Origin: Octopus vulgaris
Lineage: Eukaryota
DNA: 64,000 bases
Reading direction: 5' to 3'
NCBI GenBank assembly: GCA_951406725.2
Contig: OX597827.1
Location: 58,962,001-59,026,000, forward strand
Below the pieces are notes generated by a model. The model saw only the letters and a list, made by a program, of their open reading frames with translations, had not been told where the DNA came from and did no database searches. Shown here in pieces: positions 9,011 through 32,344 of the stretch (positions are counted from its first letter, which is position 1; the number at the start of each line of letters is the position of its first letter). A program made the translations under genes and the position numbers.

Positions 9011-9054
<44 letters not shown>

Positions 9055-9152
9055 CCCTGATGCAGTACAAGACATTGCCCAGTCCAGGAATCGAAGCCAC
9101 AATCTTACGATCATGATGCTGACACCCTAACCACTAAGCCATGCACCTCCAC

Positions 9153-9184
<32 letters not shown>

Positions 9185-9282
9185 CCCTGATGCAGTACCA
9201 GATATTGCCCGGTCCAGGAATCGAAGCCACAATCTTACGATCATGATGCTGACACCCTAACCACTAAGCCATGTGCCTCCAC
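8755..9282 (-). mobile_element. tRNA-derived SINE with its head triplicated in tandem (units separated by (AAT)n)
   Basis: A/B-box head ggaggcgcatggcttagtggttagggtgtcagcatc...ttcgattcctggac repeated at ~8935, ~9075, ~9205. Confidence 0.8.
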
Positions 9283-30130: not shown

Positions 30131-30279
30131 ACTGGCATTAATTTCTTGCTGAGGGAATATTTAACAAAGTCTTGATGTGTTTGAACACTGTAGTTTAATG
30201 TTTCACCATGAAGGACTAAATACTTGAGACTTGTTAACAAATAAAAGCAGACATCCACATCCGGGTCAGAGCACAAACC
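30131..30279 (-). CDS. unc-79: UNC79 exon: GLCSDPDVDVCFYLLTSLKYLVLHGETLNYSV...KKLMP(V)
   Basis: cttacag acceptor, GT|gtaag donor, 149 nt, phase 0 to 2; LK.L.LHGE motif. Confidence 0.92.
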
Positions 30280-30497: not shown

Positions 30498-31203
30498 ACT
30501 CTTTTCCTCTTTTACTTGTTTCAGTCATTTGACAGTGACCATGCTGGAGCACCGCCTTTAATCAAGCAAATCGACCCAAGGTGTTATTCTTTGTATGCCT
30601 AGTACTTATTCTATCGGTCGCTTTGCTAAACTACTAAGTTACGGGGACGTAAATACACCAGCATCGGTTGTCAAGCAATGTTGGGGGAACAAACAGACAC
30701 ACAAACACATATATATATATATAAGATGGGCTTCTTTCAGTTTCCTTCAACCAAATCCACTCACAAGGCTTTGGTCGGCCCAAGGCTATAGTAGAAGACA
30801 CTTGCCCAAAGTTCACACAGTGGAACTGAACTCAGAATCATGTGGTTGGTAAGCAAGCTACATACCACATGGTTCTGGGTACAGTCCCACTACGTGGCAC
30901 CCAGGGCAAGTGTCTTCAACTATAGCCTCGGGCCGACCAAACCCTTGTGAGTGGATTTGGTAGAGAGAAACTGAAGAAGCCCATCGTATATATGCATATG
31001 TGTGTGTGTGTGTGTATGTGTGTGTTTGTCCCCTCCAACATCGCTTGACAACCAATACTGGTGTGTTTACATCCCCATAACTTAGCAGTTCGGCAAAAGA
31101 GACCGATAGAATAAGTCTTGGAGGGGTCGATTTGCTTGACTAAATGCGGTGCTCCAGCCTGGCTGCAGTCAAATGACTGAAACAAGCAAAAGAGTAAAAG
31201 AGT
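30498..31203. mobile_element. head-to-head inverted pair of family A SINEs
   Basis: Minus copy ~30498-30858 abuts plus copy ~30866-31203. Confidence 0.85.
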
Positions 31204-31261
31204 GTTTTTAGAAGCAAGTAAACAAACAAATTGACCAAAGAAGAAATAGAAGCCTTCTCAC

Positions 31262-31386
31262 CTGTAACAGTGAATTGTAGAGTTGCAAATAAATTGGCAT
31301 GCCTGCTATAAAAAAGTCATATTTCGGGCTCTCTTGGAGGTGTGGTGCCATTTTTTCTTGACCACTGCTGCTACTAGAATCGCTTG
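31262..31386 (-). CDS. unc-79: UNC79 exon: ASDSSSSSGQEKMAPHLQESPKYDFFIAGMPIYLQLYNSLLQ
   Basis: ttttatttccag acceptor (present in four tandem copies), CAG|gtgag donor, 125 nt, phase 1 to 0. Confidence 0.88.
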
Positions 31387-31611
31387 CTGGAAATAAAACA
31401 GATTTTTGTACTAAATTTTTTCTTGACCACTGCTGCTACTAGAATCACTTGCTGGGAATAAAACAGATTTTTGTACTAAATTTTTTCTTGACCACTGCTG
31501 CTACTAGAATCACTTGCTGGAAATAAAACAGATTTTTGTACTAAATTTTTTCTTGACCACTGCTGCTACTAGAATCGCTTGCTGGAAATAAAACAGATTT
31601 TTGTACTAAAT
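31350..31611. repeat. 4 x 65-bp tandem repeat spanning an unc-79 intron/exon junction
   Basis: Unit attttttcttgaccactgctgctactagaatc(g/a)cttgctgg(a/g)aataaaacagatttttgtactaa starting at 31350, 31415, 31480, 31545. Confidence 0.95.
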
Positions 31612-32058
31612 AACTGGTATTTATTTAATCGACCCTGAAAAGATGAAAGGCAAAGTCGACCTTGGCAGAATTTGAACTCAGAATGTAGCAGCAGACAAAA
31701 TACCGCTAAGCATTTCGCCCAGCGTGCTAACGATTCTGCCAGCTCGCCACCCTGAACAGCACCTATACCAGTGCCACATAAAAAGGCCCTTGCTGGTGCC
31801 ATGTAAAATGTGCCTAGCATACTCTATAAAATGGTTGGCATTAGGAAGGGAATCTAGCCATAGAAACCAAGCCAAATCAGACTGGAACCTTGTTGACAAT
31901 TCTCCTGCTGGTCAAACTGTCCAACCCATTCCAGTATCGAAAATGGATGTTAAATGATAATGATGATAATGGCTGCTTGGTGACAAAAAGCCAAAAAGCA
32001 ATACATATAGAAAGAAAAATATTAAAAAATTTTTTTTAAATAAACTCTTTTTAACTAC

Positions 32059-32344
32059 CTTTCGAATGTGCTGTAGACACAGATGATAGATTATCAAGCT
32101 TGGGTAACTCTTTTGCAGGGATCTTAGCAACATCACGTGGGCATATGTAGTGCAATATCTTTGAAGACATTTGATACCACATGGCAATATTCTGACAGTA
32201 GAGGCAGTTGATAGACTGGTGTTCCTCGCTGCATGTATGTGTGCCATCCCATGGCCCATCGAGGGTTGTTGACAGGAGATGCATCAGCTGTTGACTTGTC
32301 TCATTATAAATTCCTAGATTTCGTGGAGTTTCTTGTAATTCCAG
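32059..32344 (-). CDS. unc-79: UNC79 exon: LELQETPRNLG...PWDGTHTC...CLYCQNIAMWYQ...STAHSK
   Basis: ttgtgtag acceptor, G|gtagt donor, 286 nt, phase 0 to 1. Confidence 0.93.

Follow-up and report, generated by a model that had tools for sequence, protein, structure and literature searches.

Mirage minisatellites are known from amphioxus, where they occur in the globin gene BflGb6 and also in BflGb9, Adh3, troponin C and PGBD5 (PMC3087553, PMC3902484). Their unit length ranges from 10 to 160 bp (PMC3087553); RT-PCR showed splicing to be normal, and the copy numbers of haplotypes were obtained by sequence (PMC3087553, PMC3902484). In human CBS, the variant c.844_845ins68 is a 68-bp duplication of a junction, where the distal site is strongly favoured and normal mRNA is made (PMC2630376), a choice driven by G-runs between the sites (PMC1802585). 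Intron 7 of human F7 contains a 37-bp VNTR that straddles the border of an exon; its splice sites are identical and, although functional, stay silent (PMC1557585).

The array considered here lies in the unc-79 gene of Octopus vulgaris, and it belongs to this known class, i.e., that of the amphioxus mirages and of the anatomy of human CBS 844ins68, a precedent that an earlier reading of the DNA from its letters (below, the sequence-only reading) did not name. As in BflGb6, the units are arranged head to tail, and each, consisting of an intron's 3' end plus the 5' portion of the exon that follows, spans an exon-intron boundary. The splice signal, with an intact AG, is kept in four of four copies (PWM scores 5.2-7.2); the units are highly similar and of minisatellite size, with 0-2 differences in 65 bp, inside the range of 10-160 bp; and the array is present in genomic DNA, where a 95-nt junction contig is found in three runs (X1, X2 and X5). 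The hosts are different, lancelet and octopus, and unit identity is 81-100% in the former and 97-100% in the latter. Silent splicing and haplotype lengths have been demonstrated in the lancelet, whereas in the octopus the splicing is predicted and the lengths are hinted at by depth.

Like CBS 844ins68, the octopus array is a duplication of similar size that lines up identical 3' splice sites one after another, separated by part of the exon, but CBS has two copies and the octopus four or more, and the G-runs of CBS are absent from the octopus, where the sense-strand unit contains no GGG. The CBS repeat also exists in a multi-copy version in great apes. The F7 repeat resembles what is predicted for the octopus in that the site nearest to the body of the exon is used, and differs in that a 5' and not a 3' splice site is repeated. 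Two further known systems are recursive splice sites, where extra acceptors lie within an intron, and poison-exon AS-NMD switches, where a premature stop leads to nonsense-mediated decay (NMD). The octopus array shares the extra acceptors and the NMD-type stop with these systems, but it lacks the AG/GT, its intron is short, and it shows no sign of conservation or regulation. A search of literature that excludes most subscription journals found no publication on this octopus locus or on such repeats in octopus; what it gave on mirage minisatellites deals with lancelet genes.

Structure of the Array

In the window, i.e., the whole stretch of 64,000 nucleotides that was analysed, Tandem Repeats Finder places a tandem array at 31350-31611: the period is 65, the copy number 4.0 and the score 503, with 97% matches and no indels. 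On the minus strand, each of the four 65-bp units carries an intact 3' splice site of an unc-79 exon and consists, in order, of ATTTAG, a spacer rich in A, a pyrimidine tract and CAG, with the start of the exon after them. Every unit contains 30 nt of intron end followed by exon start, and 37 exon nt are repeated. The edges of the array share a 2-nt AT microhomology, which constitutes the first 2 of the 30 intron nt and is common with the exon side.

Numbered in the direction of transcription, unit 1 (31547..31611) has its acceptor boundary at 31581 and a stop codon TAG at 31543-31541; unit 2 (31482..31546) has its acceptor at 31516 and TAG at 31478-31476; unit 3 (31417..31481) has its acceptor at 31451 and TAG at 31413-31411; and unit 4, together with the AT microhomology (31350..31416), has the acceptor at 31386, which is predicted to be the productive one. 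Only two columns of the array vary. Units 1 and 4 have the same sequence, from which unit 2 departs by one synonymous base (C>T at 31512, which makes CAA/GTGATT) and unit 3 by two, i.e., the same base (C>T at 31447) and one base of the tract (T>C at 31456). The C>T changes at 31512 and 31447 fall at a CpG and make AG/CAA/GTGATT, a donor-like site 3 nt past the acceptor. The description given by the sequence-only reading, with four copies of a 65-bp unit that contains tract, AG and 37 exon nt, with these four acceptors and with two variable positions, is thus borne out by Tandem Repeats Finder and by the sequence. Its proposal to use the variable positions, together with downstream sequence, for telling the four acceptors apart needs one correction: because units 1 and 4 are identical, acceptor 1 cannot be separated from acceptor 4 by SNPs.

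All neighbouring features are on the minus strand. The upstream exon (32059..32344) is 286 nt long, ends in phase 1 and is identical to residues 722-816 of P0019, the Octopus vulgaris protein named unc-79 homolog; its donor is AAG/gtagtt at 32059/32058. A fragment of a SINE-like high-copy repeat (31612..31751), labelled as a SINE from copy number and length and not from a database name, is cut off at the upstream edge of the array. The predicted productive exon (31262..31386) has 125 nt, a strong donor CAG/gtgaga and the same start as in the proteins of O. bimaculoides and cuttlefish. The next exon (30131..30279) lies beyond an intron of 982 nt.

Identity and Integrity of the Gene

The upstream exon matches mollusc unc-79 proteins in a protein search. 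In the window, 24 exons have been mapped; their translation, of 1,140 residues, agrees at every position with residues 9-1148 of P0019, which confirms the earlier assignment of the gene to unc-79. The remainder of the protein, to residue 2383, is found as 24 tblastn blocks in neighbouring DNA, past an intron of about 30 kb. The exon with its array has one match in the genome (G000). Since there is one genome match and the residues have been mapped to 2383, the octopus unc-79 gene is otherwise single-copy and whole.

The gene models use the acceptor at 31386, and the models are not independent of the genome. P0019 was probably modelled on this genome or on one nearly identical to it; because gene finders favour an open frame, it is no independent witness to the use of 31386. 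The exon start occurs once, and is read straight through, in four of four proteins of the Octopus cluster, including that of O. bimaculoides. In a cuttlefish cluster of 48 members it occurs once in 13 of the 15 members listed, the other two being fragments outside the region. Judged from these proteins, the exon start at 31386 is ancestral. Among about 48 mapped unc-79 exon blocks, no other exon edge was seen with a tandem array of period at least 10, and the exon-start pattern had 0 matches in metagenome contigs.

Some further properties of the gene may be recorded. The intron of about 30 kb occupies positions 1-24788 of the window and continues in the neighbouring locus L009 (to 4351), while the other 23 introns in the window are only 0.5-3 kb long; in O. 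bimaculoides, model P0033 (1,203 aa) stops a little way past the point of this intron and is probably a split model. An intronic 123-bp minisatellite of 5.8 copies (L016, 5887-6596) lies upstream of a late unc-79 exon, at a distance of about 580 nt, and touches no splice site. An intronic 130-bp tandem duplication at 9023-9282 of the window has 2 copies with 96% identity and begins with a TAA microsatellite. In the intron just downstream of the array-bearing exon there are inverted arms of 72 nt (30736-30807 and 30904-30975), which are 92% complementary, 96 nt apart and nested in further inverted pairs; these arms are likely to form dsRNA and may be a substrate for editing.

Reading Frame and Premature Stops

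Consider now the message that results when the donor at 32059 is joined to each of the four acceptors. Translation from any of the three upstream acceptors gives ASDSSSSSGQEKI followed by a stop, and 31386 alone continues to EKMAPHL, which agrees with the earlier claim that each of the three upstream copies leads to a premature stop and that the last copy is open. In all three upstream cases the stop corresponds to residue 830 of 2,383. Instead of the 125 nt obtained from 31386, the exon would be 320, 255 or 190 nt long, and the distance from the stop to the end of the exon, i.e., to the next junction, is 279, 214 or 149 nt for upstream acceptors 1-3, respectively. By the rule for NMD, a premature stop is followed by a junction at a distance above 50 nt, as is expected also of an AS-NMD switch; the values of 149-279 nt are all above this limit.

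Two ways of rescuing the frame were rejected. In-frame read-through from acceptor 1, which adds 195 nt, encounters 4 stops, and its rescue by A-to-I editing would need recoding of all four of them. Skipping of the exon, which has 125 nt, leads to a frameshift. A search for truncated or shorter proteins that end at the early stop gave 97 candidates and 0 at E <= 0.001, a weak result as NMD targets rarely give contigs.

The Array in Genomic DNA

Five DNA-type runs (X1, X2, X3, X5 and X6), with data in the form of assembled contigs, were compared. An exact contig of 95 nt is found at 31350-31444 in X1 and X2, and X5 has a 95-nt contig at 31507-31601 with one letter different. The length of 95 nt equals 65+30, as expected when a tandem repeat is represented in an assembly graph of 31-mers. 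Of the 65 words of the junction contig, 28 are impossible in an allele with one copy. On the two sides of the junction there are 65 and 30 letters in X1 and X2, one short of the 31-letter rule, and 38 and 57 in X5, whose contig passes. In X1, the contig of the unique flank breaks off after exactly 30 nt of the array, at the point where a branch in the graph is forced. Contigs also end at 31748-31751, at the upstream border of the SINE-like fragment. X3 and X6 have no junction contig among the records listed, yet they have depth in the array bins. The junction contig is thus present in three of the five runs; these represent three samples, each from a different study, and carry two organism labels. 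Since at most one of these can be the source of the window, at least two runs are independent of it. The array is present in real genomic DNA and, as the sequence-only reading had supposed, it is not a stutter of the assembly.

With the flank contig (at 16.1) or the median single-contig depth of the same run as background, the relative depth of the unit is 1.4-1.7 in X1 and 4.4 in X5. For the array bins it is 6-10 in X6 but as low as 0.5 in X3, and X2 is without a depth baseline. Contig depth of this kind is no true copy number. In simulations, the ratio is 1.57 for two identical copies, 2.48 for the allele of the window and 4.57 for five copies. These values hint at a VNTR and suggest alleles with about 2 to 5 or more copies; the value for X3 fits no simple copy count.

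The array may have originated by a first tandem duplication across the intron-exon boundary at the 2-nt AT microhomology, and subsequent slippage or unequal exchange would then have expanded and contracted it. The SINE-like fragment and the upstream edge of the array meet to within 1 nt (31611/31612), the fragment being truncated there, so that two breakpoints coincide. Either a single repair event deleted and duplicated DNA, or the coincidence reflects survivorship of breakpoints that leave the intron's final 30 nt intact. Among the matches listed for the SINE-like repeat, 63 of 64 are elsewhere in the genome, and five of seven fetched loci hold the exact anchor, all five continuing past the truncation point with other sequence. 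The SINE-like repeat also occurs in tandem arrays of 184-bp period at G000:C23:45188622-45189432 and other loci, and L019 (7516-7872) and L020 (8838-9327) contain SINE-like arrays with periods of 183-184.

Choice among Four Acceptors

The branch-point consensus is yUnAy. By this consensus, the likeliest branch A is that of ATTTAG, at position -26 and inside the unit, and from the sequence of the units each copy is likely to be a complete 3' site with its own branch point and tract. The sequence-only reading had started from the premise that spliceosomes usually choose the first strong AG past a branch point. This premise concerns AGs that are served by one branch point, while the copies here are 65 nt apart, each with its own tract and candidate branch A. 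Because every copy has such a candidate, the rule that the first AG wins does not single out copy 1.

The strength of the acceptors does not single out the last copy, either. With an acceptor matrix built from the 22 other acceptors of the gene, copies 1-4 score 7.2, 7.2, 5.2 and 7.2, and the median of the 22, scored by leave-one-out, is about 6.5. According to local folding, the tract is unpaired by 0.46-0.55 in all four copies, and the upstream tracts are not hidden; the branch region is unpaired by 0.42 in copy 1 and by 0.67 in copy 4, which is a small trend only. The four acceptors are thus nearly equal by PWM, and folding gives no clear advantage for the last copy, which speaks against its being chosen. 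In addition, exons of 190 and 255 nt fall within the exon size range of the gene (38-286 nt).

What differs between the copies is their distance from the donor on the other side of the exon. The exon is flanked by introns of 477-672 nt upstream, depending on the acceptor, and of 982 nt downstream, and its downstream donor CAG/gtgaga has a U1 pairing energy of -11.1 kcal/mol, among the strongest in the gene. According to a study based on mammalian data, splice sites at least 20 nt apart compete at initial recognition, i.e., in the first step; when flanking introns exceed 200-250 nt, sites nearest across the exon are preferred; and distant 3' sites have a general upstream preference, which, when introns are long, is "significantly reduced" without a clear reversal (PMC9225289). 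With long flanking introns, the octopus exon would be defined across itself, and the strong downstream donor would pair with the nearest acceptor, 31386, giving an exon of 125 nt in preference to those of 190, 255 and 320 nt. The upstream copies would then become part of the intron, and rare mis-spliced messages would stop at codon 830 and be removed by NMD. Because the flanking introns are long and the downstream donor is strong, the prediction is that 31386, with its 125-nt exon, prevails. Exon-definition-driven choice of the last site, one of several options in the sequence-only reading, is therefore the option that our analysis favours as a prediction. Some upstream leak is plausible, because the upstream bias of 3' sites is reduced rather than plainly reversed (PMC9225289), and NMD has been described as a backup to weak splicing (PMC2809761).

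Exclusive use of an upstream copy would amount to a null allele. In the mouse, homozygous unc-79 mutants die perinatally, and heterozygotes show phenotypes, so that the gene is dose-sensitive (PMC2920847). With this lethality, and with the array in every DNA run compared, exclusive upstream use fits poorly. All 24 runs listed consist of contigs. Compared with 31215-31622, three RNA runs (X9, X12 and X19) gave 0 records each; since the filter can drop contigs, this counts neither for nor against use of the upstream acceptors. The share of words in 11 RNA-type runs is 0.43-0.46, where 0.37 is expected for properly spliced mRNA alone, 0.42 for spliced mRNA plus one loop and 0.52 with all array words; as high-copy repeat words add to this share, it does not discriminate between the readings.

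Discussion

With a probability of about 0.77, we take the array to be a real 65-bp mirage minisatellite that is likely to be variable in copy number, likely to be near-neutral and silent or nearly silent in splicing.

Of the other readings, a leaky hypomorph deserves most attention. Here the upstream acceptors would take a sizeable and unregulated share, rising with copy number, and long alleles would make less UNC79, as a splicing QTL tolerated by selection. In its favour are the near-identical strength and accessibility of the sites, the general tendency of distant 3' sites towards upstream use (PMC9225289), the depths that hint at about 2 to 5 or more copies, and the dose-sensitivity of unc-79 in mouse heterozygotes (PMC2920847); NMD would hide the leak in steady-state RNA. 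However, the known cases of the same anatomy make normal mRNA, high-copy alleles seem to be present in X5 and X6, under other organism labels, which suggests little cost, and, as weak evidence, no shorter protein was found among the candidates searched. Taken together, we regard this reading as unlikely. A more elaborate version, in which each added unit diverts unc-79 message into NMD, so that long alleles would have less NALCN complex and an altered excitability or sensitivity to ethanol or anaesthetics, as in unc-79 heterozygous mice, and in which T-type middle units might give a partial rescue by re-splicing, is improbable and is put forward as speculation.

It is very improbable that the array is a regulated dial, i.e., a selected AS-NMD switch by which the NALCN leak current would be adjusted to tissue or condition. 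The three decoys share one stop, which lies 149-279 nt ahead of the following junction and is a clean trigger for NMD, and the array seems to be common to runs under different organism labels. Such a stop, however, follows automatically when intron is read, and units that are 97-100% identical, with a copy number that seems unstable, are unlike a conserved poison cassette. Arrays of this kind occur in unrelated genes, with no sign of function (PMC3087553, PMC3902484). Both the dial and the hypomorph had been raised by the sequence-only reading, and neither gains support from the present analysis.

Re-splicing has a very slender chance. A message from a middle copy would be spliced again to 31386 and would retain one extra Thr in frame, the 126 or 61 nt removed being a nascent intron, as in the intron-gain model for mirages (PMC3087553). 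The product, ...HSKATSDSS..., is in frame, and the donor-like site of units 2 and 3 has a donor PWM score of 4.9, above those of the 3 weakest of 24 real donors. But its U1 pairing is -2.2 kcal/mol, compared with -5.3 to -12.1 in real donors, and each of the 24 real donors has -1G, +5G or both, whereas the candidate site has neither. Moreover, C>T is an ordinary transition at a CpG, X1 and X2 have unit contigs of the C type, and the extra Thr is in no listed protein. Canonical recursive splicing needs AG/GT at the junction. As the junction here is AG/CA, followed in units 2 and 3 by only a weak donor-like site 3 nt on, a recursive splice site was rejected, and with it the earlier suggestion of recursive selection of the last site.

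That the assembler stuttered on a single real unit is scarcely credible, since the absence of any listed contig spanning the entire array and the one letter missing in the contigs of X1 and X2 are outweighed by the contig of X5 that passes the 31-letter rule, by three samples from three studies, of which at most one is the source of the window, and by the flank contig of X1 that halts 30 nt into the array, as a branch in the graph predicts.

If the mirage is silent, as in our preferred reading, the octopus provides an example for a known class, and exon-defined choice of the last acceptor holds with at least four identical sites in a dose-sensitive neuronal gene. The practical value of the array lies in its alleles, apparently with about 2 to 5 or more copies, as a natural series for studying the choice among identical 3' sites, on which the mammalian data for 3' sites are weak. 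If, instead, the array is leaky, a length polymorphism would tune a channel subunit that is tied to responses to ethanol and anaesthetics in mouse and worm.
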